Assembly (NCBI RefSeq): GCF_000018105.1
Contig: NC_009925.1
Coordinates: 4,320,001-4,352,000, forward strand
Direction of reading: 5' to 3'
Origin: Acaryochloris marina MBIC11017
Lineage (GTDB): Bacteria; Cyanobacteriota; Cyanobacteriia; Thermosynechococcales; Thermosynechococcaceae
Length of the DNA stretch: 32,000 nt
Below, piece after piece: positions 7,588 through 31,631 of this stretch. The notes beneath the pieces are model-generated. The model was given only the letters and a program-made list of their open reading frames with translations. It was not told the origin of the DNA and did no database searches. The stretch's first letter is position 1. Every line of letters begins with the position of its first letter. A program made the position numbers and the translations under genes.

Positions 7588-9912
7588 CTATTGGAGGGCC
7601 TCATAGATGGCTACGATTTTCGAATGCGCGACAGCGAGATCATGCTGCCATTCTGCGTTAGATGGATCGGCTGAAGTCAGGTTCTGACAGATAGAGAGGT
7701 ATTCATTGAATGCTTGGAGTGCATCATCCAGTCGTCCTTTAGTTTGGTAGATGTCTCCGGTCTTCGAATACGCGACAGCGAGATCACTCTGCCATTCTGC
7801 GTTAGACGGATCGGCTGAAGTCAGATTCTGACAGATAGAGAGGTCTTCATTGAATGCTTGGAGTGCATCATCCAGTCGTCCTTTGGTTTGGTAGATGTCT
7901 CCGGTCCTCGAATATGCGACACCGAGTTCACGCTGCCATTCTGCGTTAGACGGATCGGCTGAAGTCAGATTCTGACAGATAGAGAGGTATTCATTGAATG
8001 CTTGGAGCGCATCATCCAGTCGTCCTTTAGTTTGGTAGATGTCTCCGATCTTCGAATACGCGATGCCGAGTTCACGCTGCCATGCTGCGTTAGACGGATC
8101 GGCCGAAGTCAGATTCTGACAGATAGAGAGGTATTCATTGAATGCTTGGAGTGCATCATCTAGTCGTCCTTTAGTTTGGTAGATGTCTCCGGTCCTCGAA
8201 TATGCGATGCCGAGTTCACGTTGCCATGCTGCGTTAGATGGATCGGCTGAAGTCAGGTTCTGACAGATAGAGAGGTATTCATTGAATGCTTGGAGCGCAT
8301 CATCCAGTCGTCTTTTGGTTTGGTAGATGTCTCCGATCTTCGAATATGCGACACCGAGTTCACGCTGCCATTCTGCGTTAGACGGATCGGCTGAAGTCAG
8401 GTTCTGAAAGATAGAGAGGTATTCATTGAATGCTTGGAGTGCATCATCTAGTCGTCCTTTGGTTTGGTAGATGTCTCCGGTCCTCGCATGCGCGACAGCG
8501 AGATCACTTTGCCATGCTGCGTTAGACGGATCGGCTGAAGTCAGGTTCTGACAGATAGAGAGGTCTTCATTGAATGCTTGGAGTGCATCATCCAGTCGTC
8601 CTTTGGTTTGGTAAATGTCTCCGGTCCTCGAATATGCGACACCGAGTTCACGCTGCCATGCTGCGTTAGACGGATCGGCTGAAGTCAGATTCTGACAGAT
8701 AGAGAGGTCTTCATTGAATGCTTGGAGTGCATCATCCAGTCGTCCTTTAGTTTGGTAGATGTCTCCAGTCCTCGAATACGCGATGCCGAGTTCACGTTGC
8801 CATGCTGCGTTAGACGGATCGGCTGAAGTCAGGTTCTGACAGATAGAGAGGTATTCATTGAATGCTTGGAGTGCATCATCCAGTCGTCCTTTGGTTTGGT
8901 AGATGTCTCCGGTCTTCGAATATGCGACACCGAGTTCACGCTGCCATGCTGCGTTAGACGGATCGGCTGAAGTCAGATTCTGACAGATAAAGAGGTATTC
9001 ATTGAATGCTTGGAGTGCATCATCCAGTCGTCCTTTGGTTTGGTAGATGTCTCCGGTCCTCGCATGTGCGACAGCGAGATCACTTTGCCATGCTGCGTTA
9101 GATGGATCGGCTGAAGTCAGGTTCTGACAGATAGAGAGGTATTCATTGAATGCTTGGAGTGCATCATCCAGTCGTCCTTTAGTTTGGTAGATGTCTCCTA
9201 GAAGGCGCTGTGCCCGGGCAATCCCCGATTGATGGGATGCTGCATGAGCAAGATTCACAACTTGAAGCGCTTGATCCTCAAGTTGGGCGGTGTCCCCGCG
9301 CAAACTGCGAACTTCAAAAGTAGCTAGTAGTGCTTCCACTCGGGCTTTTCCTTTGAGCCAGCCGGCATTAGCTAGTTCCTCCAGAGCTAGGGAGAGTGCA
9401 GTAGTATTCTCAGGCTGCATAGAGCATGTGATTTCCTGAGTTAGCAGTTCGCATTCGGCTGCAGCAGCTATTTGATCGGTTGCAAACAAGTGGTAGAGTG
9501 CTTCGATCCGAGCATGAACTTCTGTACGCTCGTTTAAGTAATTCCGAGCATTGGTGGACAACAAAAGCCAGCGAGCGGGATCTGTCTTCCGCAAATAATC
9601 CCGCAAGGTAAGGCGAGCAGACTCGTGGACATTCACGGCTTTCTCGCCCCGGGCAGGAAAGGGTTCAATAACAGTGAGTTTGCGCAAAGAATTGAATAAG
9701 ATGTCTCCCTGATCGGGTGTTGTGTCCAGCACAGCCACAAGGAGGTCGCAATCGCACCAGTGTGGTATGGCAGCAGCGATTAATGCCTTTTTAATTGATA
9801 GGCGCCGTGATTCAGAAAGCGGGGAATGGGCTAAATCGACACTAGCAAGAACAAGGGCTGCTGGGTCACCTTTTGCGTTTTGGAGAATACGGAGTCGTTC
9901 AGTGAAATCCAT
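7588..9912 (-). CDS. STAND-type winged-helix/helical domain plus TPR-repeat protein (11 x 48-aa repeats)
   Basis: 774 aa. N-terminal ~230 aa are helical and include a winged-helix-like LRKLTVIEPF....VNVHESARLTLRDYL. These are followed by 11 tandem near-identical 48-aa TPR-like units (GDIYQTKGRLDDALQAFNEYLSICQNLTSADPSNAAWQRELGVAYSR). Confidence 0.9.
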   Translation of the reverse strand: MDFTERLRILQNAKGDPAALVLASVDLAHSPLSESRRLSIKKALIAAAIPHWCDCDLLVAVLDTTPDQGDILFNSLRKLTVIEPFPARGEKAVNVHESARLTLRDYLRKTDPARWLLLSTNARNYLNERTEVHARIEALYHLFATDQIAAAAECELLTQEITCSMQPENTTALSLALEELANAGWLKGKARVEALLATFEVRSLRGDTAQLEDQALQVVNLAHAASHQSGIARAQRLLGDIYQTKGRLDDALQAFNEYLSICQNLTSADPSNAAWQSDLAVAHARTGDIYQTKGRLDDALQAFNEYLFICQNLTSADPSNAAWQRELGVAYSKTGDIYQTKGRLDDALQAFNEYLSICQNLTSADPSNAAWQRELGIAYSRTGDIYQTKGRLDDALQAFNEDLSICQNLTSADPSNAAWQRELGVAYSRTGDIYQTKGRLDDALQAFNEDLSICQNLTSADPSNAAWQSDLAVAHARTGDIYQTKGRLDDALQAFNEYLSIFQNLTSADPSNAEWQRELGVAYSKIGDIYQTKRRLDDALQAFNEYLSICQNLTSADPSNAAWQRELGIAYSRTGDIYQTKGRLDDALQAFNEYLSICQNLTSADPSNAAWQRELGIAYSKIGDIYQTKGRLDDALQAFNEYLSICQNLTSADPSNAEWQRELGVAYSRTGDIYQTKGRLDDALQAFNEDLSICQNLTSADPSNAEWQSDLAVAYSKTGDIYQTKGRLDDALQAFNEYLSICQNLTSADPSNAEWQHDLAVAHSKIVAIYEALQ
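7618..9201 (-). repeat. 11 tandem 144-bp coding repeats (48 aa each) inside the TPR gene
   Basis: Period measured directly: attcattgaa at 7701 versus cttcattgaa at 7845, and gtcgtccttt at 7731 versus 7875, both 144 bp apart. Eleven GDIYQTK units in the translation give 11 x 144 = 1584 bp. Confidence 0.95.
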
Positions 9913-9917
9913 TGGCT

Positions 9918-11039
9918 TTAATCCGAAGGCCCTAACAGTTGGGCAAGTGTTGTACTCTTGCCTTTAGAGTACTGATGGGCTGTGCGAACAAACTCAAGCT
10001 GGAGGCCCGGTTCGTAGGTCTGACCGTACTCAAACCATTCTTCAGGTGTAGGTAAGCTGAGCTCTATGGGTGAGATACTTGCTTCATCCCACGGTTCTCC
10101 GTGCACCTTCAGTGTATGTTGACCAACTACGATAACACGTAGCCAAGTTTCGCGAATGATCGAAAGGAGTAGACTTTGTTGCATCCAGGCCTCTGCTTCG
10201 CCAGCCATCTCAAACGTGTCGAAAATAAGGAGGGTGGGACGCGCAATCTTTTGGAGGGAAGTAAAAATTTGAGAAAGTTGACTAACAACCCTACCAGATG
10301 GGGCCTCAATCTTGAGGTTCTGAGCAAAAATCCGCAGTTCCGTGTCTATGTCTGTAGAACCTTTGAAGTCTAGACGTCCGCAAGTTAATCCCGGAATTTT
10401 AAATGCATTTCGGAGAAACTGCTTTGTTAAGTGGGTCTTACCTATTTCTGTCGGACCGTAGATTGGAAGTATTCTGAATGGTGCTCTATGCGTAATTAGC
10501 TTTGCAAAAGCAAGCTTCGCTTCACGATGATTTGCCACAGGCCAGTCAAGCGTAGGGGTGATATCAGGCCAACCCAGATCTTTAGAGTTTGTCGAAAGAT
10601 AGTACTCCTTCTTACGCCCTTCATTAATCGCAAGGCGACTGAGAATAAGTACAGCTGTTTCTTCAGGTGTCTTATCATCCAGATCAACAAAACCTGCAAG
10701 ACCAAACAATCCTGTAGGTTCGCAGTTGCCAAAGCGTAAGAGCATAACTTCTTCATTTTTACGCTGCATGAGAACACTATAAATAGCATTCCACTCAAGG
10801 CCGCACCACTTTTTCTCGTTGTAGTTATTGCATAGGATAGCAACGACCAGATCGGCTTCCTTCTCATAAAGCGAGGGAAGATAAAAGGCAAGATCGCTAC
10901 GGGCAAATTCTCCCTCGTGAAATTTATCGTAAAGAAGTTGTTCTTTGCTGAAGCGATCTGCAAGAAAGTTTGCTATTCGGGCAACAAAATCTCTGTTTTC
11001 TCCTGCAAATGAAAATGCGATGCGAAAACGTTTTTGCAT
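9918..11039 (-). CDS. TIR domain + P-loop (STAND/AAA-like) NTPase protein
   Basis: N-terminal bacterial TIR signature (RIAFSFAGENRDFV...LVVAILCNNYNEKKWCGLEWNAI, candidate catalytic Glu at residue 82). Walker A GPTEIGKT at residues 195-202 and Walker B LLIFDTFE at 270-277. 373 aa. Ends 5 nt before the TPR gene start. Confidence 0.85.
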   Translation of the reverse strand: MQKRFRIAFSFAGENRDFVARIANFLADRFSKEQLLYDKFHEGEFARSDLAFYLPSLYEKEADLVVAILCNNYNEKKWCGLEWNAIYSVLMQRKNEEVMLLRFGNCEPTGLFGLAGFVDLDDKTPEETAVLILSRLAINEGRKKEYYLSTNSKDLGWPDITPTLDWPVANHREAKLAFAKLITHRAPFRILPIYGPTEIGKTHLTKQFLRNAFKIPGLTCGRLDFKGSTDIDTELRIFAQNLKIEAPSGRVVSQLSQIFTSLQKIARPTLLIFDTFEMAGEAEAWMQQSLLLSIIRETWLRVIVVGQHTLKVHGEPWDEASISPIELSLPTPEEWFEYGQTYEPGLQLEFVRTAHQYSKGKSTTLAQLLGPSD

Positions 11040-11395
11040 TTTAACTGAACTCTAATTGGTGTCGGTGCATAACGATGGCGTCCCAGTTTTTAGAATAATG
11101 CAGCATTTTGACTTGCCTTTTCCACTTCGAATAAGTTTAACTCGGTTGAGGTAGGTTAAGTAACTGTATCTGTCAGCCAAAAACGGCATGGAGTTGTAGT
11201 TGTAGTTCTCACCTTAATAGCTGTGGTTTCTGGAGATGCAATTAATTCACCTACTCATCAAATATTGTTATACATTCACATACGCAGATAAAGACTTGCA
11301 AGAGAATCGAGATATTCCTTTGGGAGAAAATCAGGGATTGCCCGAGATTAATTTTTGGAAATGGATCAATAATTCTGGAGTGTACGCAACAGCTA

Positions 11396-12004
11396 TTACT
11401 TGGAAAAGTGAAATCGTCTCTGAATCAGTTTGCGGTAGACAGCAAATAACAGCAGTGAACTCATAATCAATAGGTGAACCTGAAAGGCAGCATTGGCAAT
11501 ATTCCAGACGGGAATCGAGGGTAGAACCAATAGCACGCTGAGGAGACTGGCAAAAAACATCGCGCCTGTCTCGGTATCTGGATATTTCCAGGTTTTAATT
11601 AAGGTGGGAAAAGAGGCAAAAATATCGCCGATGATGGCACAGAGGATGGCTAGTTGCGGAGATGCGATCGCAGCCCATAAAATCACCGCCAGTAACGAGA
11701 ACGCCCCACAGCTCAAGTCAAAGACTCCCATTTTCCAGTAGCTGCGTTTATTGACAAATGAGGCGAAAAAAATTAGGAGTGGCAATAAACCCGCAATAAA
11801 AACGCGCAAAGTAGGCCAACCAGCTGCCCCTGCTGAGAGTGCAGCTGCGGTACTAATCAAGGGGGATAAGGCCCACATAGACCAAGACACCCGGTTTGGC
11901 TTGGTCTTACCCGCCAGGGTATCGCGAATATAGGCGAAGGCCCCAGCTGCACTAATCAGTACACTGAGGATAACTAACCAATGGATCAGCGATATACCTA
12001 GCAT
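11396..12004 (-). CDS. multi-pass integral membrane protein, function unknown
   Basis: 202 aa, about six hydrophobic helices, ATG start. No family recognised with confidence. Confidence 0.65.
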   Translation of the reverse strand: MLGISLIHWLVILSVLISAAGAFAYIRDTLAGKTKPNRVSWSMWALSPLISTAAALSAGAAGWPTLRVFIAGLLPLLIFFASFVNKRSYWKMGVFDLSCGAFSLLAVILWAAIASPQLAILCAIIGDIFASFPTLIKTWKYPDTETGAMFFASLLSVLLVLPSIPVWNIANAAFQVHLLIMSSLLLFAVYRKLIQRRFHFSK

Positions 12005-12134
12005 GTAGTCCTATTACCTCTAGCAATCAAGTCTGTTTATCGCCGTCTGTGATCATGCTGATTCCCAATGGCATCTTGTGAGCATTAGGGTTTGGTTTGC
12101 CCAGATTTTGGGTTTTGAAACTGAGTCAAAAAGT

Positions 12135-19793: not shown

Positions 19794-20018
19794 ATGCCCA
19801 AAAAGATCAAAGATTTGAAGCGGCTGTTGCAAAAGGCAGGGTTTGTATTGCTGCCCAAGCGGGGTAAAGGAAGTCACTCTTACTGGATTCATGAACTCTT
19901 GCCTAAGCCAGTTGTTTTGTCTGGCAAGGATGGTGGAGATGCAAAGCCCTACCAAGAGAAGCGAGTAGATGAAGCATTAAAGACGGTAGAACGGTTACAA
20001 GGTGAAGAAGATAAATGA
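19794..20018 (+). CDS. hicA: type II toxin-antitoxin system toxin, HicA family
   Basis: 74 aa. K.L.RLLQKAGF....KRGKGSHSYW.H......VVLSGKDG.D.KPY matches the HicA/YcfA pattern. Located directly upstream of a HicB-like gene. Confidence 0.8.
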   Translation: MPKKIKDLKRLLQKAGFVLLPKRGKGSHSYWIHELLPKPVVLSGKDGGDAKPYQEKRVDEALKTVERLQGEEDK

Positions 20019-20057
20019 AAGACGGTAGAACGGTTACAAGGTGAAGAAGATAAATGA
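19980..20057 (+). repeat. perfect 39-bp tandem duplication (2 copies) spanning the hicA stop / hicB start
   Basis: aagacggtagaacggttacaaggtgaagaagataaatga occurs at 19980..20018 and again at 20019..20057 (gacgg at 19982 and 20021). Confidence 0.95.
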
Positions 20058-20260
20058 AATACAGCATTCTTATTCAGTGGTCTGATTCTGATCAGTCTTA
20101 TATTGCAAGCTTGCCAGAGTGGGGAAGATTCGCATCAACCCACGGTGACACCTATGAAGAAGCTTTGGAAAATGCCAGAGAAGTTTTAGAGGATCTCATC
20201 TACGCCTATGGGCAAATGGGGAGGCCCTTACCTTTACCAAAAGTTCTACAGGTTGCGTAA
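20054..20260 (+). CDS. hicB: type II toxin-antitoxin system antitoxin, HicB family (short form)
   Basis: 68 aa. MKYSILIQWSDSDQSYIASLPEW....THGDTYEEALENAREVLEDLI matches the HicB/UPF0150 N-terminal fold pattern. Gene order is hicA then hicB. Confidence 0.75.
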   Translation: MKYSILIQWSDSDQSYIASLPEWGRFASTHGDTYEEALENAREVLEDLIYAYGQMGRPLPLPKVLQVA

Positions 20261-20411: not shown

Positions 20412-20924
20412 TTGTTATTGGACGAGCCACATAATCCGTTTTATTTCAATACAATTCCACAGAAAGTTGTAGTGTCTAATTTCGTAGGAAAGTGTCCATA
20501 TTGTTCTCATCGAATTAAGGCTTGGACAGATACCCCACACGGCTCAGAGTATAACTGTCCTCGATGTTCCAGGACCTTCGATGTCTTGCTGACAGACTTC
20601 AACAATCATTCTCCACACGAAATTAGTGAGCACTTCCCTTGCTTAGTGTTCAAGATGGGGGAACTTACAGCTTTTACGGTGAGAAAAGAACAGAGATTTT
20701 GTGAAGTGTGTGGAACTTTCTATAGGCAAGACGAGAATGTGTGTCCCAATCTACTTGAGGAGATTGTGTATTGGTACCACCACCCCGAAGTGATTTCCAA
20801 CAAGACAGACGAACTAGACCCAGATTTAGTACAGGGAGAAATCAAAGTGTATCTTGCCGCTAATTTTAAAGACAGAGTTGTACGTAGAATCATTAACGGA
20901 AACTTGAAAAAGAAGAAAGAGTAG
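20412..20924 (+). CDS. hypothetical Cys-rich protein with two zinc-ribbon-like motifs
   Basis: CPYC-x19-CPRC, then CEVC-x11-C. Lys-rich tail. TTG start and AT-rich sequence. No family recognised. Confidence 0.45.
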   Translation: MLLDEPHNPFYFNTIPQKVVVSNFVGKCPYCSHRIKAWTDTPHGSEYNCPRCSRTFDVLLTDFNNHSPHEISEHFPCLVFKMGELTAFTVRKEQRFCEVCGTFYRQDENVCPNLLEEIVYWYHHPEVISNKTDELDPDLVQGEIKVYLAANFKDRVVRRIINGNLKKKKE

Positions 20925-21194: not shown

Positions 21195-22595
21195 ATGTCA
21201 GCTAACAACGATATGTTTGAGCAATCCCATCGCCAGGCCGGAGATCTTATCGCGGAGCGATACCGCCTCCTTTCTGTACTCGGTAAAGGAGGGGCTGGCA
21301 TTACCTATGCCGCAGAAGATATTTATACCCAACAGGAGTTTGCCCTCAAAGAACTATCCCTAAAGGGCATGGGGGATTGGAAACAGCTAGAACTGTTTGA
21401 ACGCGAAGCCAAGGTTTTGTCTCAACTCAATCATCCAGCCATCCCCAACTATATCGACTACTTTCAAACCGATACTGAAGAAGATCGGTGGTTCTATATC
21501 GTTCAGGAATTAGCCCCCGGTCAGTCCCTAGCCGACTTGGTGAAAGAAGGATGGCGGGCTAGCCAAGCTGAAGTGCGTCAGTTAGCCTTACAAATTCTGG
21601 ACATTCTGAAATACTTACATGAGCTAACCCCACCGATTATTCATCGGGATATTAAGCCACAAAATATTATCCGCAGTGAAGAGGGTCAGATTTACCTGGT
21701 GGACTTCGGTGCTGTCCAAAATGTCTATCACAACACGATGGTGGGCAGTACAGTGGTGGGGACCTACGGCTATATGGCCCCTGAGCATTTCCGGGGGAAA
21801 GCGGTTCCCGCCACCGACTTGTACTCTCTCGGAGCAACGCTGCTGTTTTTGCTCACCCACTGTTCCCCTGCTGACTTGCCGCAAAAGCGACTCAAGATAG
21901 ATTTTCGTGCTGCGGTGCAGCTCAAGCCAGACTTTGCGGACTGGCTCGATCAACTGCTGGAACCTGCCGTGGAGGATCGGTTGGCCTCGGCCCAAGACGC
22001 GATTGACGCGCTTAAAGCACCGCCACGACGGGCGCAGTCTACATCTATTACCCCACCCAAAGCCAAAGCCCTGCAGCGAAAACCGATGGGCAGTAAGGTA
22101 AATCTACAACGCACAAGGACCCATCTAAACATTGACATTCCCCCCATTGGCTTACGGGGAGAAACTTTGGGGATTGGCTGTTTTGCTGTGTTTTGGAATG
22201 GGTTTATTTTTGTGTGGACTGCGGGTGCGCTTGCGGCTGGCGCTCCTTTTATCTTTCCCTTATTTTCCATTCCGTTTTGGATTGTTGGTCTTGGTATGGC
22301 GGGAGCGGCCATCTTTGGGATGGCTGGACGAACGCACCTAGAAATTAATCCGCAAACCTTTGAGTTAGTTTGGCAAGTCAAGTCTTTAGGATTCCGATAT
22401 CGTCGCAGTGGACGCACAGAAGATATTGAAGGCATTAAGCTCACGGTTGCCTATACCAGTAATGATCGCCCGGTTAAGGGCTGTACCCTATTGGAAGGCG
22501 TTAACACCCATCGATTTGGTACCATGCTCAGCCCTAGTGAAAAAGGATGGTTAGTGGATGAAATTGGTGATTTTTTAATGTCACAGCAACACTGA
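21195..22595 (+). CDS. Ser/Thr protein kinase with C-terminal TM-hairpin module (paralog 1, subtype A)
   Basis: GKGGAG (GxGxxG), FALKEL Lys, LFEREA Glu, HRDIKPQN, DFG, GTYGYMAPE. Two predicted TM helices at about residues 324-377. GAGG Shine-Dalgarno site. Confidence 0.92.
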   Translation: MSANNDMFEQSHRQAGDLIAERYRLLSVLGKGGAGITYAAEDIYTQQEFALKELSLKGMGDWKQLELFEREAKVLSQLNHPAIPNYIDYFQTDTEEDRWFYIVQELAPGQSLADLVKEGWRASQAEVRQLALQILDILKYLHELTPPIIHRDIKPQNIIRSEEGQIYLVDFGAVQNVYHNTMVGSTVVGTYGYMAPEHFRGKAVPATDLYSLGATLLFLLTHCSPADLPQKRLKIDFRAAVQLKPDFADWLDQLLEPAVEDRLASAQDAIDALKAPPRRAQSTSITPPKAKALQRKPMGSKVNLQRTRTHLNIDIPPIGLRGETLGIGCFAVFWNGFIFVWTAGALAAGAPFIFPLFSIPFWIVGLGMAGAAIFGMAGRTHLEINPQTFELVWQVKSLGFRYRRSGRTEDIEGIKLTVAYTSNDRPVKGCTLLEGVNTHRFGTMLSPSEKGWLVDEIGDFLMSQQH

Positions 22596-22689
22596 GCTGT
22601 TGCTTAGGAACTGCTAACCGACCCAGGCCACTATTCTCTCAATCAAGGTAAGACACAATGGAGATATCTCGTTTAGGACAAGTAACTCC

Positions 22690-24069
22690 ATGCTTGAGCC
22701 GATGTCTCACCAAATTGGAGATCTGATTGCTGGAAGGTATCGCGTGCAATCCATCTTGGGACAGGGTGGTACGGGTATAACCTTTGCTGTGAAAAATGTT
22801 TACAATTACCAGCATTATGCACTCAAAGCATTGTCTCTTAAAGGAATCCAAGAGTGGAAACAGTTAGAACTGTTTGAGCGAGAAGCTAAAGTTCTATCTC
22901 AACTGAATCATCCAGCGATTCCGAACTACATTGACTACTTCCAAATCGATATTGAAGCGGATCGGTGGTTTAATATTGTTCAAGAACTGGCACCAGGCAA
23001 ATCTCTCGCAGATTGGGTGAAAGATGGATGGAACCCTAGCCAAGAAAAAGTGCGTTGTTTGGCATTTCAAATTCTGGATATCCTGAAATATCTACATGAA
23101 CTAACACCACCGATTATTCATCGGGACATTAAACCGCAAAACATTATCCGCAGTGACAAAGGTCAGATTTACTTAGTGGACTTTGGTGCTGTGCAAAATG
23201 TCTATCAAAGCACGATGATGGGCAGTACGGTGGTGGGCACTTATGGTTACATGGCTCCTGAACATTCTCAAGGGAAAGTTGTGCCTGCCACCGACTTATA
23301 TTCTCTAGGGGCAACGCTGTTATTTTTGCTCACCCATTGTTCCCCTACCGATTTACCTCAAAAAAGGTTGAAGATTGATTTTCGCTCTACTGTCCAACTT
23401 GAACCTCAGTTTGCTGATTGGCTCGACCTGATGCTAGAGCCTGCTATAGAAGATCGCTTAGACTCTGCTCAAGCAGCGATTGACGTTCTTCCAGTTCTAC
23501 GACGCGTTTCTCCCTTATCAATTGCCCCACCCAAAGCCATCGCTCCTCCTCGGCAACCAATGGGGAGCAGGGTCAAGTTAAAAAGAACAAGAACCCACCT
23601 TGTACTTGAAATCCCCCCTGCAGGTTTAAAGTTTGAAACCGTTGGATTGGGCTGTTTTGCCCTATTTTGGAATGGGCTAATTCTTCTTTGGACTTTAGGT
23701 GCCGTGGCTGTTGGTGGTTCTTTCATTATTCCCTTATTGTCTATCCCGTTTGGACTTATGGGTATTGTGATGGCCGGAGCTGCACTCTATGGGATGGCAG
23801 GATGCGAACGTCTAGAAATTAGTCCCCAAACCTTTGAATTGGTCTGGCAAGTGGCGACATTCAGACTTCGATATCGTCGTAGTGGTCGAACAGCTGACAT
23901 CGATGGTATTAAGCTGACAACGACCCATACCAGAAATAATCGCCCTGTTAAAGGCTGCACTTTGCTAGAAGGTGCTAACGCACACATATTTGGCATTATG
24001 CTCAGTCCTCGTGAAAAAGTATGGCTAGTTGCGGAAATTGGTGACTTTTTAACGTCACGGCAACAATAA
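22690..24069 (+). CDS. Ser/Thr protein kinase with C-terminal TM-hairpin module (paralog 2, subtype A)
   Basis: Same motif set (GQGGTG, YALKAL, HRDIKPQN, DFG, MAPE) and the same C-terminal module. Confidence 0.92.
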   Translation: MLEPMSHQIGDLIAGRYRVQSILGQGGTGITFAVKNVYNYQHYALKALSLKGIQEWKQLELFEREAKVLSQLNHPAIPNYIDYFQIDIEADRWFNIVQELAPGKSLADWVKDGWNPSQEKVRCLAFQILDILKYLHELTPPIIHRDIKPQNIIRSDKGQIYLVDFGAVQNVYQSTMMGSTVVGTYGYMAPEHSQGKVVPATDLYSLGATLLFLLTHCSPTDLPQKRLKIDFRSTVQLEPQFADWLDLMLEPAIEDRLDSAQAAIDVLPVLRRVSPLSIAPPKAIAPPRQPMGSRVKLKRTRTHLVLEIPPAGLKFETVGLGCFALFWNGLILLWTLGAVAVGGSFIIPLLSIPFGLMGIVMAGAALYGMAGCERLEISPQTFELVWQVATFRLRYRRSGRTADIDGIKLTTTHTRNNRPVKGCTLLEGANAHIFGIMLSPREKVWLVAEIGDFLTSRQQ

Positions 24070-24159
24070 ATTAGGAAATCATGCAAACAGAGTTAGCATG
24101 ATTTTGAACGGGCGAAGGTGAAGGTTAGGAGTAAGCCAGAATGATAGGGCACTTCTTTG

Positions 24160-25536
24160 ATGACCTATTTCGTGTTTGAGAACCTACCTCACCAAGCTGG
24201 AGATTTAGTTGCAGAACGATATCGCTTAATATCTGTGCTGGGTCAAGGTGGATTTGGAGTAACTTACACAGCTGAAGATATTGATACTCACCAACAATTC
24301 GCTATCAAGCAAATGTCTTTAAAGGGCATGACCAATTGGAAGCAATTGGAATTATTTGAGCGAGAGGCACAAGTCTTATCTCAACTGGAACATCCAGCTA
24401 TTCCCAATTACATTGATTATTTTCAAACCGATACTGAAGGAGATCGTTATTACTATATTGTTCAAGAGCTAGCGTCAGGTAAATCTCTGGCAGAATTAGT
24501 TGGTCAAGGCTGGCAAGCCACCCAAGTAGAAGTAAAACAGATAGCCTTGCAGGTTTTGGAAGTTTTGAAGTACCTGCACGCGTTAACACCCCCGATCATT
24601 CATCGAGACATTAAACCCCAAAATATCATTCGAAATGATGATGGCCAGATATATCTAGTTGATTTTGGTGCTGTGCAAAATGTCTATCACAGCACGATGA
24701 TGGGTAGCACAGTGGTGGGTACTTATGGTTACATGGCGCCTGAACATTTCCAAGGGAAGGCTATCCCTGCGACCGACCTTTATTCTCTGGGGGCAACGTT
24801 GCTGTTTTTACTCACCCATTGCTCTCCTGCTGATTTACCTCGAAAACGTCTGAAAATTGATTTTGGCTCAGTTGTAAAGCTTGACCCTGCCTTTGCCGAT
24901 TGGCTTGATCTTATGCTGGAGCCAGTGGTCGAGGATCGTTTCTGCTCAGCTCAGGACGCCATCTCAGTTCTATTACAGCCAACAGTCAGTCGCTCTCTTG
25001 CTGGTGATGTAGCACAAACCATTCAGCAGCCACCTGGCAGCAAAATTAATTTGTATAAGACGAAAACTTCGGTGACCATTCATATCCCACCAGTTGGCTT
25101 GCCCTGGAAATCTGTTCAACAAAAGTGTTTGAAGCTTTGGTTTGATTTGTTAATGCTAATTATCTTGTTAATGCTACTTGAACATATTATGCCCCCGCTT
25201 GTTTTAGGGGGTGTATCCATTATTAGCGGGATGATTTGGGTTGGAATGATGGCTTCTGTGTTGTTTGATATTGTTGGACATACTCATCTCAAGATTGATC
25301 CAAAGCATTTTCGTTTGCTCTGGAGGTTAAAGTTCCCAGGTCTTAAGTATGTTCGTGGAGGGCGCACTGCAGATTTGATAAGAGTTAAGTGTATAACGAC
25401 CTCAAGAAGTAAGGCCAAATACTGCGCTCTTATCACTAAAGGTAATCAATATAATTTTGGAATGCAGCTTAGCTCTAGCGAAAAGAACTGGTTAGTGAAA
25501 GAAATAGGTGATTTTTTGATATCTCAACAGAACTGA
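24160..25536 (+). CDS. Ser/Thr protein kinase with C-terminal TM-hairpin module (paralog 3, subtype B)
   Basis: GQGGFG, FAIKQM, HRDIKPQN, DFG, MAPE. C-terminal module of the variant type (HTHLKIDPKHFRLLW..KYCALIT). ATG at 24160; a TTG lies at 24157. Confidence 0.9.
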   Translation: MTYFVFENLPHQAGDLVAERYRLISVLGQGGFGVTYTAEDIDTHQQFAIKQMSLKGMTNWKQLELFEREAQVLSQLEHPAIPNYIDYFQTDTEGDRYYYIVQELASGKSLAELVGQGWQATQVEVKQIALQVLEVLKYLHALTPPIIHRDIKPQNIIRNDDGQIYLVDFGAVQNVYHSTMMGSTVVGTYGYMAPEHFQGKAIPATDLYSLGATLLFLLTHCSPADLPRKRLKIDFGSVVKLDPAFADWLDLMLEPVVEDRFCSAQDAISVLLQPTVSRSLAGDVAQTIQQPPGSKINLYKTKTSVTIHIPPVGLPWKSVQQKCLKLWFDLLMLIILLMLLEHIMPPLVLGGVSIISGMIWVGMMASVLFDIVGHTHLKIDPKHFRLLWRLKFPGLKYVRGGRTADLIRVKCITTSRSKAKYCALITKGNQYNFGMQLSSSEKNWLVKEIGDFLISQQN

Positions 25537-25628
25537 ACGATGGACTGGAGAACGGCTGATTGCTCTAGATTCTCCATCTATGCCAAGGTACAAGACACAG
25601 CAGAATTGCGTTTCTAATGTAGCGCTTC

Positions 25629-27002
25629 ATGAGCATGAAGATTTCACATCCGATGGGTGACCTTATCGCTGAAAGGTATCGTGTGCGATCCGTTTTAGGG
25701 CAAGGTGGTGCTGGTATCACCTTTGCCGTGGAGGATGTTCATACTCACCAGTCTTATGCCCTTAAAGTCTTGTCTCTCAAAGGGATTCAGGATTGGAAAC
25801 AGCTAGAACTGTTTGAACGAGAAGCCAAGACGCTATCACAGCTGGATCATCCGGCCATTCCCAATTACATTGATTACTTTCAAGCTGATACCGCAGGCAA
25901 TCGGTGGTTTTATATTGTTCAAGAATTAGTTCCTGGCCACTCCCTCGCAGAACTTGTGCAGCAAGGATGGCGGGCAAACCAGACTGAAGTGCGTCAATTA
26001 GCTTTGCAGATTCTGGACATTCTGAAATATTTACATGAGCTGACCCCACCGATTATTCATCGAGATATTAAGCCGCAAAATATTATCCGTAATGGCGACG
26101 GCCAGATTTACTTGGTGGACTTTGGTGCTGTACAAAACGTCTATCACAACACGATGGTGGGCAGTACGGTGGTGGGCACCTATGGCTATATGGCTCCAGA
26201 GCATTTTCAAGGAAAGGCAGTGCCTGCGACCGACCTCTATTCTCTGGGGGCAACGCTGCTATTCTTGCTCACTCATTGTTCTCCCGCTGATTTACCTCAA
26301 AAACGTCTAAAAATTGACTTTCGCTCCGTCGTTCATCTTGAACCTGCTTTTGCGGATTGGCTGGATCAAATGTTGGAGCCTGCTCTAGAAGATCGGTTTG
26401 TTTCGGCCCGGGATGCGATGGATGGGCTTACTGCTCCACCCCGACGAGTGAAGCCACCTGCCAAGCCTCGCTCTCGGACTCCACGTCGGCAACCGAGGGG
26501 TAGTAAGGTTACCTTGAAACGGACAGAGACTCAGCTAATTGTTGATATTCCTCCCACTGGTTTGCGAGTACAAACGTTAGGGATGGGTTGCTTTGTGGTG
26601 TTTTGGAATGGGGGTGTTTTAGCTGGGACTTTCGCGTGTTTTGCAGTGGGTAATTTTGCCATTCTCCCTTTTTTCATTCCATTTTGGATTATGGGGAGTA
26701 TTTTAGTTGGTCTGACCCTCTGTGGGATAGCTAGCAGTACCCATCTAGAAATTAATCCTCTAACCTTTGAATTAGTCTGGCAAATCAAGTCTTTAGGGCT
26801 TCGATATCGTCGTAGTGGACGCACGTTGGAGATCAAACAAGTAAAACGAACGGATGCCTACAACATTAATGATCGCCCTGTGCAGGGGTGCACTCTCTTG
26901 GAAGGTTCTAAAAAACATAAATTTGGGACCATGCTGAGCCCTAGTGAACAAGCATGGCTCATGGAAGAAATTAGTGACTTTTTGAGATTGCGAAACCGCT
27001 GA
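25629..27002 (+). CDS. Ser/Thr protein kinase with C-terminal TM-hairpin module (paralog 4, subtype A)
   Basis: GQGGAG, YALKVL, HRDIKPQN, DFG, MAPE. Subtype A C-terminal module. Confidence 0.92.
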   Translation: MSMKISHPMGDLIAERYRVRSVLGQGGAGITFAVEDVHTHQSYALKVLSLKGIQDWKQLELFEREAKTLSQLDHPAIPNYIDYFQADTAGNRWFYIVQELVPGHSLAELVQQGWRANQTEVRQLALQILDILKYLHELTPPIIHRDIKPQNIIRNGDGQIYLVDFGAVQNVYHNTMVGSTVVGTYGYMAPEHFQGKAVPATDLYSLGATLLFLLTHCSPADLPQKRLKIDFRSVVHLEPAFADWLDQMLEPALEDRFVSARDAMDGLTAPPRRVKPPAKPRSRTPRRQPRGSKVTLKRTETQLIVDIPPTGLRVQTLGMGCFVVFWNGGVLAGTFACFAVGNFAILPFFIPFWIMGSILVGLTLCGIASSTHLEINPLTFELVWQIKSLGLRYRRSGRTLEIKQVKRTDAYNINDRPVQGCTLLEGSKKHKFGTMLSPSEQAWLMEEISDFLRLRNR

Positions 27003-27097
27003 CCAATTTGCTTGAAAAGGACTGATTGCGCCAGATCACCAACTTATTATTTGGGGCAAGACACAATGGAAGCATTGCGTTGTTACCCTAGCGCTTC

Positions 27098-28462
27098 ATG
27101 ATCACGCAAATTTCACACCAGATTGGCGACCTTATCGCTGAACGGTATCGTGTGCGATCCGTTTTGGGGCAAGGTAGCACTGGTATCACCTTTGCTGTGG
27201 AGGATGTTCAGACTCATCAGCAGTATGCCCTTAAAGCTTTGTCCCTCAAGGGAATTCAAGATTGGAAGCAGTTAGAACTGTTTGAGCGAGAAGCGAACGT
27301 TCTCTCGCAACTCGATCACCCATCAATTCCCCATTACATCGACTATTTCCAAACGGATACTGCAGAAGATCGGTGTTTTTATATTGTTCAAGAATTAGCA
27401 CCAGGTAAATCTCTTGCCTGTCTGGTGGAGGATGGATGGCGAGCGAGTCAGGCGGAGGTCCGTCAACTCGCTTTGAAAATTTTAGAGACATTGCAATATC
27501 TTCATGAATTACACCCACCGATTATTCATCGGGATATTAAACCGCAAAATATTATCCGTAATGGCGACGGCCAGTTCTATTTAGTCGATTTTGGAGCAGT
27601 GCAAAATGTCTACTACAACACGATGATGGGCAGTACGGTTGTAGGCACTTATGGGTATATGGCTCCTGAACATTTCCAAGGTAAGGCTGTCCCTGCGACG
27701 GATCTCTATTCTTTGGGAGCAACGCTACTGGCGCTGCTCACCCATTGCTCTCCTGCTGAATTGCCCCGGAAACGTCTGAAAATTGACTTTCGCTCAGTCG
27801 TAAGGCTCGACCCTGCTTTTGCCAATTGGCTGGATCATCTCATCGAACCTGCGGTGGAAGATCGGTTTGTTTCGGCCCGGAATGCGATCGCAGCCCTAAG
27901 ACAACCAGGCATCCCACGACAATCTTCTTTACCTCAAAAAGATAGATCTGCCCCGATTCAGCCAGTGGGCAGCAATATCCAATTACACAAAACGCAGACT
28001 ACACTGACTGTTCATATTCCCCCCGTCGGTTGGCATTGGGAAACGTTGAAACAGGAGTGTCTACAACTTTGGGTTAATGTCTGTGTCCTCGTTGTATTTT
28101 TATGGGCCTTTAAAGCGGCCATGCCCCCACTAATATTTGGAGTTGCGGCCTGTCTCGGCGGCATGATTGGGATTGGAATGCTGAACTCTGTGGTGTTTGC
28201 CATTGGGGGCCATACGCATCTCAAAATCGCTCCTCAGGCTTTTCGGTTATCCTGGCGGGTTCATATACCTGGTCTACAATACTCTCGCAGAGGGCGCACT
28301 GTAGACTTGATCGGGATTAAGTTAACCACGTCTCCTAAGAGTAAAGTCAAATACTGCACCCTATTCACTACAGATCATCAATATAGTTTTGGAACACATC
28401 TAAGCCCTTCTGAGCAGGCTTGGTTAGTGGAGGTCATTGGTCATTTTTTGAGGCCAGAATAA
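27098..28462 (+). CDS. Ser/Thr protein kinase with C-terminal TM-hairpin module (paralog 5, subtype B)
   Basis: GQGSTG, YALKAL, HRDIKPQN, DFG, MAPE. Subtype B C-terminal module (HTHLKIAPQAFRLSW..KYCTLFT). Confidence 0.92.
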   Translation: MITQISHQIGDLIAERYRVRSVLGQGSTGITFAVEDVQTHQQYALKALSLKGIQDWKQLELFEREANVLSQLDHPSIPHYIDYFQTDTAEDRCFYIVQELAPGKSLACLVEDGWRASQAEVRQLALKILETLQYLHELHPPIIHRDIKPQNIIRNGDGQFYLVDFGAVQNVYYNTMMGSTVVGTYGYMAPEHFQGKAVPATDLYSLGATLLALLTHCSPAELPRKRLKIDFRSVVRLDPAFANWLDHLIEPAVEDRFVSARNAIAALRQPGIPRQSSLPQKDRSAPIQPVGSNIQLHKTQTTLTVHIPPVGWHWETLKQECLQLWVNVCVLVVFLWAFKAAMPPLIFGVAACLGGMIGIGMLNSVVFAIGGHTHLKIAPQAFRLSWRVHIPGLQYSRRGRTVDLIGIKLTTSPKSKVKYCTLFTTDHQYSFGTHLSPSEQAWLVEVIGHFLRPE

Positions 28463-28554
28463 TCCTGGCTCGGCCCAGCGGGTTGTGCTAGATCACCCAC
28501 CGCTCTTGTGGGGCAAGCCACAATAAAGACAGCCCATTACCTATAAGGCAGCTC

Positions 28555-29976
28555 ATGCTTCAGCGGACCTCACACCAGATTGGCGACCTCATTGCTGAAC
28601 GGTATTTAGTGCAATCCGTGTTGGGGCAAGGAAGCAGTGGCATGACCTTCGCAGTTGAAGATATTCAGACTCGTCAGCTGTATGCCCTTAAGGCTTTGTC
28701 CCTTAGAGATATTCAGGACTGGAAACAGCTTGAACTGTTTGAACGAGAAGCCCAGGTCTTATCCCAGCTCGATCATCCAGCAATTCCTCACTACATTGAC
28801 TACTTTCAAGCGGATACTGACCAAGACCGATGGTTTTATATTGTCCAAGAATTAGCGTCCGGTCAATCCCTGTCAGACTGGGTTAAGGAGGGCTGGCGGG
28901 CCAGCCCGGCTGAAGTGCGTCAATTGGCAGTGCAGATTTTAGGCATTCTTCAATATCTCCATGCATTGAGTCCACCCATTATTCATCGGGATATCAAGCC
29001 CCAGAATATTATCCGTAGCGAAGATGGTCAAATTTATTTGGTGGATTTTGGAGCAGTCCAAAATATCTATCGCAATACGGCGGGCAGTACCGTTGTTGGT
29101 ACCTATGGCTATATGGCTCCCGAGCATTTCCAGGGTCAAGCAGTCCCGGCGACGGATCTCTATTCTTTAGGGGCGACGCTTCTCTTTCTCCTGACCCATT
29201 GTTCTCCTGTTGATTTGCCCCAACAGCGGCTCAAGATCGATTTTCGCCAAGCCGTTCAACTCCAGCCAGGGTTCGCCGATTGGCTGGATTGTCTGCTCGA
29301 ACCTGCTGTGGAAGATCGCTTGAGTTCGGCTCAGGAGGCATGGGATGCATTGGCAGCGTTAACTCGGCCCTCTGCCAAGCCGGTTCGTCCCAAATCCTTA
29401 TCCCAACGGAAAGTAGAGGCATTGCGGCAACAGCCCAAAGGCAGTAAGGTGCGGCTTCAAAAAACATCGTCTCAACTGACCGTTGATATTCCTCCGAGTG
29501 GGTTGCGGGGCAAAATTCTAGGGATTGGCCTGTTTGCCTTGTTCTGTGAAGGGATTGCCTTTGCGATCGCAGCCAGTGTTGCCACCAGTCTATTCAACGG
29601 TCAAGTCCCTCCTCTGTTTGCGTTTGTCGCGATTCTACCCCTACTGATTTCAGGATCAGGGCTGTTGATAGCGGTCTTGTTCGGTATTGCCGGGAGTATC
29701 CAGTTACAGATCAACTCTCAAACCTTTCAACTGTGTTGGCAAATTCAGCGCTTGGGGCTGCGACATCAAATATCGGGCAGCACAGCAGCATTGGATGGGG
29801 TTAAACTAACGACGGCCTATAAAAGTAATGACCGACCCGTTGCCGCCTGCACCCTGATTGAAGGAGACAAACTCCATAAATTTGGTACTCTGCTTAGCCT
29901 GCCAGAAAAAGAATGGCTCGTTCGGGAAATTAGTGATTTTTTATGGTGTCAGCCACGCCAGAAACAGACCGTCTAA
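28555..29976 (+). CDS. Ser/Thr protein kinase with C-terminal TM-hairpin module (paralog 6, divergent subtype A)
   Basis: GQGSSG, YALKAL, HRDIKPQN, DFG, MAPE. Subtype A-like C-terminal module with a longer linker and tail. Confidence 0.92.
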   Translation: MLQRTSHQIGDLIAERYLVQSVLGQGSSGMTFAVEDIQTRQLYALKALSLRDIQDWKQLELFEREAQVLSQLDHPAIPHYIDYFQADTDQDRWFYIVQELASGQSLSDWVKEGWRASPAEVRQLAVQILGILQYLHALSPPIIHRDIKPQNIIRSEDGQIYLVDFGAVQNIYRNTAGSTVVGTYGYMAPEHFQGQAVPATDLYSLGATLLFLLTHCSPVDLPQQRLKIDFRQAVQLQPGFADWLDCLLEPAVEDRLSSAQEAWDALAALTRPSAKPVRPKSLSQRKVEALRQQPKGSKVRLQKTSSQLTVDIPPSGLRGKILGIGLFALFCEGIAFAIAASVATSLFNGQVPPLFAFVAILPLLISGSGLLIAVLFGIAGSIQLQINSQTFQLCWQIQRLGLRHQISGSTAALDGVKLTTAYKSNDRPVAACTLIEGDKLHKFGTLLSLPEKEWLVREISDFLWCQPRQKQTV

Positions 29977-30149: not shown

Positions 30150-31631
30150 ATGAACTCCGGTTTCCCTAACCCTTATGCCTTTGAACATTCTGATCCAGAG
30201 ACCTTAGAAGCTGAACTGGATCAGACCATTCAGGACTTTGAGCAAATGCAGGCAGAATTGGGGTATCAGCAAGCCCATTCTGCTCTAGAGACCTTGGTGG
30301 ATAAGCTGGATCTCTCTCCCCGAGAGCGAGCGGGACTAGAAACCGAAATCAATTCCCTGCAATCCATGCTCGACAAGCTAGAAAAACAGGTGGTTCATAT
30401 CGCTGTGTTTGGCATGGTCAGTCGAGGCAAATCTTCCCTCCTCAATGCCTTGTTGGGACAGGCCGTGTTTGCCACCGGGCCGGTGCATGGGGTGACGCAA
30501 CAGAGCCAGCAGGCCAGCTGGTTTGTGGATCAAGACTCTGGCGAAGAGGCCATTCGCGTCTCTTTGCAAGGGGTGGGGCAATCCCGGATTGAGCTGATAG
30601 ACACCCCTGGGATTGATGAAGTCGATGGTGAGGTGCGAGAGCGGCTGGCCCGCCAAATTGCCCAGCAGGCCGATTTGATTTTATTTGTGATTGCGGGGGA
30701 TATGACCAAAGTCGAGTTTGAGGCTCTATCGGAGTTGCGGCAGGCCAGTAAACCGATTCTGCTAGTGTTCAACAAAGTCGACCAATATCCCGAAGCAGAT
30801 CGCAACGCCATTTACGAAAAAATTCGAGATGAGCGAGTGCGAGAGCTGCTGTCTGCCGATGAGATTGTCATGGCCTCGGCAGCCCCCCTGGTGGCCCAAG
30901 CCATCCAATATCCTGATGGGCGCTTGGGGGCAGAACTGGTGCCCGGCCCCCCCCAAGTCCAGGATCTAAAGTTGAAAATCCTAGAAGTGCTGGAGCGAGA
31001 AGGTAAGTCACTGGTGGCCCTGAATACCATGCTCTATGCCGATGATATTAACGAGCAGCTGATTGAGCGGAAGATGCGGATCCGCGATCGCAGTGCGAAT
31101 CAGATTATTTGGCGCGGCGTCATGGCCAAAGCGGTCGCCATTGCCCTTAATCCCGTTACCGTTGTGGATGTGCTCAGCAGTGCCGCCATCGACATCGCCA
31201 TGATTCTGACCCTTTCAAAGCTTTATGGCATTTCCATGACCCAAAAAGGAGCCGTCGATTTACTACGCAAAATTGCCTTAACAATGGGCGGCGTTGGTGC
31301 TACGGAACTATTAACCACTCTAGGGCTAAGTTCCCTCAAAGGACTCTTAAGCTTAGCGGCTCCAGCAACCGGGGGAGCCTCCCTGTTGCCCTACGTTTCT
31401 GTGGCCGTTTCTCAAGCAGCTGTGGCGGGGGTTTCTTCCTATGGCATTGGTGAAGTTACCAAACGGTACCTCGTCAATGGGGCCTCCTGGGGACCCAATG
31501 GGCCAAAAACCGTGGTTAATGAGATTCTCTCTTCCCTCGATCAGGCCACTATTTTGAACCGGATCAAAACCGAGCTGCAGGAAAAACTAGATATTGCTGA
31601 TGACAGCACATCTATGGTGGAAGAGGGCTAA
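30150..31631 (+). CDS. GTP-binding protein with C-terminal DUF697-like membrane-associated domain
   Basis: G1 GMVSRGKSSLLNALLG, G3 DTPGIDE, G4 NKVD. The C-terminal ~170 aa are Gly/Ala-rich and hydrophobic, as in the YcjF/DUF697 family. 493 aa. Confidence 0.85.
   Translation: MNSGFPNPYAFEHSDPETLEAELDQTIQDFEQMQAELGYQQAHSALETLVDKLDLSPRERAGLETEINSLQSMLDKLEKQVVHIAVFGMVSRGKSSLLNALLGQAVFATGPVHGVTQQSQQASWFVDQDSGEEAIRVSLQGVGQSRIELIDTPGIDEVDGEVRERLARQIAQQADLILFVIAGDMTKVEFEALSELRQASKPILLVFNKVDQYPEADRNAIYEKIRDERVRELLSADEIVMASAAPLVAQAIQYPDGRLGAELVPGPPQVQDLKLKILEVLEREGKSLVALNTMLYADDINEQLIERKMRIRDRSANQIIWRGVMAKAVAIALNPVTVVDVLSSAAIDIAMILTLSKLYGISMTQKGAVDLLRKIALTMGGVGATELLTTLGLSSLKGLLSLAAPATGGASLLPYVSVAVSQAAVAGVSSYGIGEVTKRYLVNGASWGPNGPKTVVNEILSSLDQATILNRIKTELQEKLDIADDSTSMVEEG

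Follow-up and report, generated by a model that had tools for sequence, protein, structure and literature searches.

A PH-like domain, apparently split by a transmembrane hairpin, at the C terminus of six tandem Hanks-type kinases in Acaryochloris marina

Six protein kinases encoded in tandem by the cyanobacterium Acaryochloris marina MBIC11017 share a C-terminal region outside their catalytic domain, and the locus raises the question of what this region is and what it could do for a kinase. The window analysed here comprises 32,000 nucleotides (NC_009925.1, positions 4,320,001 to 4,352,000; all coordinates below are those of the window) and contains the kinase genes as six plus-strand open reading frames (ORFs) of 454-473 amino acids (aa) each, spanning 21195-29976. 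An earlier note, made from the DNA sequence alone, had described a C-terminal module of ~170 aa common to all six proteins; the six modules do align without large gaps, at 38-68% identity to the module of paralogue 1, and the gene ends given in that note are the ORF ends found here. Paralogue 1 (21195-22595, plus strand; 466 aa) consists of kinase, linker and module and is the canonical copy. Structure prediction and comparison support the view that the module is a PH-like domain split by a transmembrane (TM) hairpin, the architecture that has been solved for EROS/CYBC1.

In the AlphaFold2 model of paralogue 1 the module is composed, in order, of a β-hairpin, two TM helices joined by a loop of ~5 residues, six β-strands and a C-terminal helix. 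The β-hairpin (22083..22157, plus strand, as are all features of this gene; residues 297-321, with strands at 303-306 and 311-315) would form the N-terminal part of the split PH domain and closes with an IPP.G motif before the first TM helix; among 77 homologues P316 and P317 are invariant, while I315 and G319 recur in at least 90% of them. TM helix 1 (22158..22235; residues 322-347), predicted both as a helix and from hydropathy, bears the family motif FA.FWNGF..WT, and TM helix 2 (22251..22325; residues 353-377, modelled as helices 353-357 and 359-377) bears the motif LFSIPFW..G.GM, with G365 conserved in at least 90% of the same homologues. The loop between them was expected to be very short, and in this model it comprises the five uncharged residues AGAPF (348-352). 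The six-stranded β part follows (22326..22517; residues 378-441, with strands at 378-384, 388-395, 400-407, 411-422, 425-434 and 437-441), defined by the modelled strands and by structural matches to PH domains, and a capping helix (22533..22589; residues 447-465) ends the protein with a conserved E..WL..EI..FL motif, in which E449 and W452 are invariant in the 77 homologues. The module has a mean predicted local distance difference test score (pLDDT) of 86 when modelled alone from nine sequences and of ~94 within a full-length model built on 77 homologues. Three of the sequence motifs that the earlier note had written for the module, GS[KRN][VI].L.[KR]T...[LV]...IPP.G., C[TA]L and FG..LS..E..WL[VM].[EV]I..FL, match all six paralogues literally. 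The long middle motif beginning [ST]..L.I.P..F.L.W matches none as written, its first spacing being off by one, paralogue 1 having F at a required L, and the P and G positions being variable; a relaxed form of it fits five of the six.

A Foldseek search of the PDB with the AlphaFold2 model of the module returned EROS as the best match. Chain D of 8KEI, the NOX2-p22phox-EROS complex, was aligned over 176 columns, which is to say over the whole module (E-value 1.3e-6, TM-scores of 0.53 and 0.54), and was both the sole PDB match at E ≤ 1e-3 and the sole full-length one. Many of the next matches (E of at least 0.03, ~90 columns) are PH or PH-like domains, including those of Sac2, Brag2, MTMR2, SIN1 and Exo84 and the bacterial PH proteins 3DCX and 3HSA. 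Together, the full-length match to EROS and the PH-like nature of the matches behind it point to a split PH-like domain. In EROS, the PH domain is "separated by H1 and H2", and the antiparallel helices and the cytoplasmic β-strands both bind NOX2 (PMC11161758). The two share the order of their elements (two N-terminal strands, a TM hairpin with a short loop, six strands and a C-terminal helix) and, as far as the models predict, the cytoplasmic location of both termini. They differ in context, EROS being a standalone animal protein of ~187 aa and the module the C-terminal half of a Hanks kinase, and in the standing of their function: a client-chaperone role has been shown for EROS, whereas for the module we infer it.

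These comparisons also bear on the fold proposed for the module before any structure had been predicted. The guess of a PH-like fold proves right at the superfamily level; the accompanying arrangement, with two TM helices preceding the PH domain, does not, the hairpin here splitting the PH domain as it does in EROS. The suggestion that the two flanks of the hairpin lie on the same, cytoplasmic side of the membrane agrees with the model, which places strands 303-306 and 311-315 directly before TM helix 1 and strand 378-384 directly after TM helix 2, and is further backed by the full-length alignment with EROS. The sequence echo between the strands before and after the hairpin, from which that suggestion had been drawn, is present in paralogue 1 (5/9 residues identical), fades in the other paralogues (1-3/9) and is not conserved in the wider family.

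Scans of the module with Pfam, NCBIfam and PADLOC gave no confident hidden Markov model (HMM) match to a characterised domain; in Pfam and NCBIfam nothing rose above threshold, and NCBIfam returned no match at all. The only recurrent Pfam relative among the families listed is DUF2244 (PF10003; gathering threshold 27 bits, profile length 138). Within the window it matches the module of paralogue 1 (13 bits, E 0.088) and none of the other five, but its score rises to 15.7 bits in homologue P0001. Matches were also obtained for 23 of 59 homologous modules, with a best E of 1.1e-5, and for 15 of 100 full-length homologues, with a best E of 1.8e-12. All run collinear with the profile and nearly over its whole length, at positions 9-137 of 138 from TM helix 1 through the C-terminal helix, and on their evidence the module is related to DUF2244, divergently, as a homologue at the superfamily level. 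Xu et al. (2010) grouped DUF2244 with DUF304 (now bPH_2, the YdbS/YdbT type) and DUF1200 among bacterial PH families and described it as having two N-terminal TM helices and as apparently "lacking beta1" (PMC2817789). The Pfam model of DUF2244 begins at TM helix 1 and leaves out the N-terminal β-hairpin, and in our structural model it is this hairpin, upstream of the TM helices, that would supply the strands "missing" from DUF2244. In DUF2244 and in the module alike, a PH-like β domain comes after two TM helices; DUF2244 has not been described as fused to kinases, whereas the module lies C-terminal to a Hanks kinase.

Other candidate relatives are more distant in sequence. The bPH_2 family (PF03703) is likewise a bacterial PH-like domain that is anchored in the membrane and has TM helices ahead of it, and it belongs to the same superfamily (PMC2817789), so that the YdbS/YdbT likeness drawn in the earlier note stands at that level. 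The nearest sequence family is DUF2244 and not bPH_2, however, which had no match at E ≤ 10 in the six modules and is absent among the families listed for 59 homologues, and its PH domain comes after the TM helices, whereas that of the module is split by them. A weak match to bPH_7 was found in two modules. Ycf4, an assembly factor of photosystem I (PSI) in cyanobacteria and plastids, has been reported to be similar in sequence to EROS (PMC5379978), and its linear plan, read from sequence, resembles that of the module: a short N-terminal segment, a TM hairpin, a β-rich domain and a C-terminal helix. Ycf4 occurs in the same organisms and is not fused to a kinase. Neither Ycf4 (PF02392) nor DUF4564 appears among the Pfam families listed for the six modules and 59 homologues. 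Alignment of the module with Ycf4 by hhalign gave a probability of 15% (E 0.0018, 127 in-register columns) against a Ycf4 set that was angiosperm-only (Neff 1.3), and of 4% with a larger module alignment, the in-register stretch extending over 127-152 columns from TM helix 1 to the C-terminal helix; neither value is significant, in a comparison of low power. No Ycf4 chain is present in the PDB. Against human EROS, with a query sequence identical to 8KEI_D, hhalign gave a probability of 0.2-0.3%, in an underpowered set-up that also missed the published link between Ycf4 and EROS (0.4%).

One further profile match concerns the hairpin itself. In a sequence search of the PDB, positions 5-90 of the module profile, which take in the β-hairpin and the TM hairpin, aligned with residues 113-210 of TolQ (8ODT, 9KPZ; E 8e-4 to 1e-3, 22 bits), as would be expected if the hairpin were homologous to the TM2-TM3 stator hairpin of TolQ, ExbB and MotA and formed an ion-conducting channel. 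We regard this explanation as scarcely credible. The score is marginal and was judged an artefact of TM composition, MotA_ExbB is absent among the Pfam families listed for the six modules and for 59 and 100 homologues, no TolQ, ExbB or MotA chain is found among the 50 Foldseek matches listed, and no acidic residue is conserved in the membrane part of the module.

The hydrophobic segments behave, by prediction, as membrane-spanning helices. They form a block of ~55 residues with Kyte-Doolittle maxima of 1.9-2.5 (19-residue window); the loop between them carries at most one charged residue per paralogue (0-1), and K/R residues occupy both flanks of the hairpin. Nearly uncharged loop and K/R-rich flanks fit an in-out-in topology, in which only the ~5-residue loop would reach the far side of the membrane and everything else would be cytoplasmic. 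With so little outside, the kinase-module protein would have no extracytoplasmic sensor domain.

The catalytic part is readily recognised in all six proteins. A Pkinase domain (Pfam PF00069) occupies approximately residues 17-263 in each (E 1e-39 to 1e-44; 136-153 bits against a gathering cutoff of 31.7), with the G-loop, AxK, HRDIKPQN, DFG and APE motifs intact, and given this match and the complete catalytic motifs all six should be active Hanks-type Ser/Thr kinases. In paralogue 1 the domain (21243..21983; residues 17-263, PF00069 at 23-263 with E 2.4e-42) contains GKGGAG, ALK, HRDIKPQN, DFG and APE and is modelled with a pLDDT mostly above 85. It is followed by a flexible linker rich in Pro, Lys and Arg (22005..22082; residues 271-296), which has a pLDDT below 50 at residues 280-292 and is 30% identical among the paralogues, with a ratio of nonsynonymous to synonymous substitution rates (dN/dS) of 0.61. 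The low pLDDT of the linker and the predicted template modelling score of the full-length AlphaFold2 model of paralogue 1 (pTM 0.58 overall) suggest that kinase and module are independent bodies joined by a flexible leash. This plan recalls receptor-type Hanks kinases, such as PknB/Stk1 with its PASTA domains and the cyanobacterial cbSTKII class, in its N-terminal cytoplasmic kinase and flexible juxtamembrane linker. It departs from them beyond that point: they cross the membrane with a single TM helix and carry an extracytoplasmic sensor, whereas here the hairpin is predicted to re-enter the cytoplasm and there is no external domain. A 2007 survey of cyanobacterial kinases classed those with long unidentified C-terminal regions as "cbSTKI-other". 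Synechocystis SpkC, an integral membrane protein, is a candidate member of the present family; SpkF is probably not a member, its class, cbSTKI-TM, having 3-6 TM helices.

Kinases of this architecture are widespread in cyanobacteria and extend to green algae. Many cyanobacterial genera have full-length homologues of paralogue 1, with 54-60% identity and a coverage of 95% or more; among these genera are Trichocoleus, Nodosilinea, Leptolyngbya, Planktothrix, Microseira, Argonema and Aerosakkonema, and the homologues are annotated simply as "serine/threonine protein kinase" and carry Pfam marks on the kinase domain only. The full-length architecture is also found in the green algae Chara braunii (GBG86707.1), Mesostigma, Chlorokybus, Spirogloea, Closterium, Pterosperma and Picocystis. 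The algal proteins are 35-47% identical to paralogue 1, essentially over the full length where the sequence is complete, and form a clade adjoining the cyanobacterial clade in a neighbour-joining tree; those of Chara, Mesostigma and Spirogloea retain the hairpin motifs. The N-terminal extensions of the algal proteins, rich in S, T and R, look like plastid transit peptides. One protein with kinase and module comes from a Spirochaetales metagenome-assembled genome.

Against this background the other five copies of the array can be compared with paralogue 1, to which they are 60-73% identical over their whole length. All are encoded on the plus strand, and their modules were delimited with the module HMM: paralogue 2 (22690-24069; module 23557..24066, HMM positions 1-170, E 7e-75, 68% identical to the paralogue 1 module), paralogue 3 (24157-25536; module 25030..25533, E 1e-69, with the most divergent TM hairpin), paralogue 4 (25629-27002; module 26493..26999, E 3e-73), paralogue 5 (27098-28462; module 27962..28459, E 1e-69, forming a subclass with paralogue 3, their modules being 52% identical) and paralogue 6 (28555-29976; module 29434..29973, E 8e-66, with a longer TM1-TM2 region). 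The start of paralogue 3 is ambiguous between TTG at 24157 and ATG at 24160, public gene calls giving 458 aa, and the 457-aa ORF of paralogue 4, from ATG 25629, is annotated publicly as 449 aa (the difference covering 25629-25652). Paralogues 3 and 5 have in common a three-residue deletion in the loop that joins strands four and five beyond TM helix 2 and the replacement of RPV..C by K[YV], and neither retains the hairpin motifs FWNG and PFW. In the neighbour-joining tree the six paralogues and the proteins of other Acaryochloris strains form one clade, within which several pair with other-strain sequences, suggesting that the six-copy expansion is specific to the Acaryochloris lineage.

Divergence is distributed unevenly along these proteins. 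The TM hairpin is the part of the module that differs most among the six paralogues (identity 11-63%, as compared with 70-83% for the kinase), and dN/dS rises from 0.09 in the kinase to 0.31 in the module and 0.59 in the hairpin. Synonymous divergence (dS) is saturated, at about 1.5 among the paralogues and at ~1.2-1.7 in every region, which rules out recent gene conversion as the source of the similarity between the kinase domains; with a dN/dS of 0.09, that similarity is attributable to purifying selection. In the family at large, the hairpin is well conserved: among the 71 cyanobacterial homologues from outside the window its conservation (0.56-0.59) is on a par with that of the PH core (0.54). 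Of the hairpin positions conserved in the family, paralogue 1 keeps 95%, paralogue 2 77%, paralogue 4 59%, paralogue 5 41%, paralogue 6 36% and paralogue 3 18%, while the conserved positions of the β-hairpin and PH core are kept at 69-100% in all six. A hairpin that is conserved throughout the family and yet eroded in the extra copies suggests, at the level of sequence, that the canonical hairpin is under strong constraint and that the additional Acaryochloris copies have specifically changed it.

This pattern bears directly on one explanation of the module, in which the hairpin merely inserts into the membrane as a passive anchor and the PH domain gates the kinase in response to lipid headgroups or to the membrane's physical state. 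The hairpin dN/dS of 0.59, the weakest constraint within the module, is what a passive anchor would show, the predicted lack of an extracytoplasmic domain would suit a protein that senses the membrane itself, and PH and bacterial PH domains are often tied to lipid binding, as discussed for Slr1470 (PMC9157124). For an anchor, however, hydrophobicity would suffice, and eight consecutive residues of TM helix 1 are conserved from cyanobacteria to streptophyte algae, as is the S.PFW..G.G block of TM helix 2. In canonical eukaryotic PH domains the β1-β2 loop binds phosphoinositides, and in the model of the module the hairpin is inserted among the N-terminal PH strands, apparently in the region of that loop. 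We consider this explanation improbable.

The conservation of the hairpin beyond what a mere anchor would call for, together with the grip of EROS on its client, favours instead a model in which the module is a membrane-embedded docking domain that tethers the kinase to specific membrane partners, a reading that we hold to be about evenly poised between right and wrong. The kinase, the ~25-residue disordered linker and both halves of the PH domain would all lie in the cytoplasm, and the TM hairpin and the PH sheet would together offer a docking surface for specific membrane proteins, as EROS does on NOX2. A constitutively competent kinase would thus be held on a flexible leash at the cytoplasmic face of its partner or substrate, and divergent hairpins on near-identical catalytic and PH cores would retarget one kinase to different membrane partners. 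In support of docking, the motifs FA.FWNGF..WT and LFSIPFW..G.GM are conserved as strongly as the PH core in the 71 cyanobacterial homologues. Like EROS with NOX2, other membrane-tethered PH-like proteins bind membrane complexes at intermediate stages of assembly, and there are such precedents in phototrophs, namely Ycf4 with PSI (PMC5379978) and Slr1470 with the RCII complex of photosystem II (PSII) (PMC9157124). The latter, a membrane-tethered PH-like protein of oxygenic phototrophs that co-purifies with PSII RCII (PMC9157124), is a precedent by description only, differing from the module in its single TM helix, its membership in another bacterial PH family (IPR012544) and its lack of a kinase.

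The contexts in which the module occurs speak partly for docking and partly for another function. An exhaustive search with the module profile found 3,341 representative proteins at E ≤ 1e-3, of which 932 at E ≤ 1e-10, which shows that the module is not a chance pattern; a word-indexed homologue search with the module gave only 4 matches. Architectures were read from the best 150 matches of the profile search, 100 of which were scanned with Pfam. A Pkinase domain is present in 46 of the 100, and a kinase with one module is the commonest architecture. The earlier note had asked whether the module exists without a kinase or on other effectors, and among the best 150 both are found: there are short proteins that amount to little more than the module, zinc-ribbon proteins that carry it (P0002 and P0063) and two fusions to a U-box, which is, like the kinase, a "writer" head. 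This occurrence on U-box, zinc-ribbon or no head at all fits a portable "membrane-partner reader". In the U-box proteins, P0095 and P0105, the module is preceded by the U-box and by an extra hydrophobic segment, and if that segment spans the membrane the module would face the opposite side from the U-box.

The same set contains kinases with two or three modules (P0005, P0008 and P0064) and tandem double and triple modules without a kinase, and the main rival to docking is that the module serves self-association for kinase activation. As an oligomerisation platform it would form homo- or hetero-oligomers of the paralogues and so bring kinases together for trans-autophosphorylation, the hairpin motifs being module-module contacts. 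Hanks kinases are commonly activated by dimerisation, and two or three tandem modules per chain, as seen in many homologues, are typical of self-associating domains. The TM helices contain small-residue motifs (G.G, GA), and bacterial PH domains crystallise as oligomeric rings through an open β5 edge (PMC2817789). On the other side, EROS, the closest structure, acts as a client-bound monomer (PMC11161758), and a shared interface would be weakened by hairpins that differ between paralogues encoded together. We judge self-association possible, although rather unlikely.

Several observations weigh against a docking domain of the EROS type. The gene neighbourhood offers no conserved candidate for a partner, the downstream gene for a GTPase fused to DUF697 being syntenic within Acaryochloris only, and the proteins with tandem modules hint at self-association instead. 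Relaxed constraint could account just as well for the rapid divergence of the hairpin seen in paralogues 3, 5 and 6. A TM-score of 0.53 at a root-mean-square deviation of 6.8 Å denotes the same topology as EROS but no close superposition, and the match is structural only, with no sequence signal to DUF4564 or Ycf4. The pairing of the N-terminal β-hairpin with the sheet, finally, is one that we infer from the predicted topology and the alignment with EROS.

The genomic setting of the array was examined as well. Exact protein matches also locate the window in the A. marina chromosome AP026075.1 (GCA_024347835.1). The kinase genes are flanked by pheT on one side and by the GTPase-DUF697 gene on the other, and are separated by spacers of 87-95 nt (22596-22689, 24070-24156, 25537-25628, 27003-27097 and 28463-28554). 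Four of the five spacers carry a conserved element of ~70 nt, GCTGATTGC..AGATC..CC...GGGGCAAGACACAATG...GCGTT...AGCGCTTC, and a promoter and terminator scan found no terminator-like site in any of the five, its counts of promoter-like and terminator-like sites not exceeding the shuffled expectation. The shared element and the absence of terminator-like sites suggest that the array is probably a single operon and that the duplication unit took in the spacer along with the gene. Upstream, between pheT and the array, public gene calls place a 74-aa ORF of the HicA toxin family (19794-20018, plus strand), adjoined by a 68-aa ORF (20054-20260, plus strand) that may be a HicB-like partner. A 170-aa ORF with CxxC pairs (20412-20924, plus strand), of which public annotation keeps the last 89 aa (20655-20924), has weak, sub-threshold matches to double zinc ribbons (E ~1e-3); its position beside the array may or may not be meaningful, fusions of zinc ribbons with the module being on record (P0002 and P0063). 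The downstream gene (30150-31631, plus strand) encodes a GTPase with an MMR_HSR1/dynamin-like N terminus fused to DUF697, has a syntenic counterpart of 97% identity in another Acaryochloris genome, and gives weak LeoA/LeoBC-like PADLOC matches through its GTPase domain only. Rfam and tRNA scans of the window gave no matches.

Comparison with a related metagenome-assembled genome, Acaryochloris sp. IP29b_bin.137 (9113-12015), revealed the order GGDEF-pheT-[paralogue 1]-[paralogue 6]-GTPase, with just two kinases, which are 93% (paralogue 1) and 77% (paralogue 6) identical to their orthologues in the window; pheT and the GTPase reach 97%. The array thus appears to evolve faster than its flanks and to vary in copy number, 2 versus 6. 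Such instability of copy number, the lower conservation of the kinases and the HicA toxin gene upstream are features that a phage-defence or conflict array might show, and the PADLOC models PD-T4-6 and mad6 match the proteins with E-values down to 1e-61, so that the genes could encode PD-T4-6-like kinases with the module as a membrane-disrupting effector. These matches, however, lie on the generic kinase domain, ending near residue 300 in five of the six proteins scanned, with one match in paralogue 3 reaching residue 340, and the module alone has no PADLOC match. From one cyanobacterial genus to another, and in green algae, the family behaves as a group of conserved orthologues, the saturated dS marks the duplicates as old and stable, and a search of the viral structure library returned no match to the module at E ≤ 1e-3. 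We therefore regard a defence function as very improbable.

The architecture of a PH domain split by a TM hairpin was already known from EROS, and from Ycf4 through its reported similarity to EROS, and DUF2244 was known as a putative bacterial PH family. Our literature search found no description of the fusion of the module to Hanks kinases, of the conservation of kinase and module from cyanobacteria to green algae, of N-terminal strands that complete the fold, or of a six-copy array that diversifies its hairpin. There is an annotation gap as well: most of the ~3,300 representative proteins escape the Pfam model of DUF2244, which also lacks the N-terminal strands that would complete the fold.

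A broader interpretation, which we put forward as a speculative one, is that these proteins are ancient, hitherto unrecognised signalling proteins of oxygenic phototrophs, handed down from cyanobacteria to green algae and sent to the plastids of the latter, in which proteins the split PH domain docks on polytopic membrane complexes that the kinase phosphorylates, the six rewired copies of A. marina addressing different clients. If so, the clients could be, for instance, complexes of photosynthesis, respiration or transport, or intermediates in their assembly, and U-box and zinc-ribbon heads would make use of the same portable "membrane-client reader". Among the many Hanks kinases of cyanobacteria, only a few have an input or a substrate that is known; one formerly unclassified C-terminal region now gains a defined predicted fold with a mechanistic precedent in EROS, and docking offers a testable idea of how a kinase without an external sensor would find its membrane target. 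The members found in streptophyte and prasinophyte algae, with N termini resembling transit peptides, may bear on plastid regulation, and the six-copy array of A. marina constitutes a natural experiment in which the hairpin has been varied while the catalytic core was held constant.

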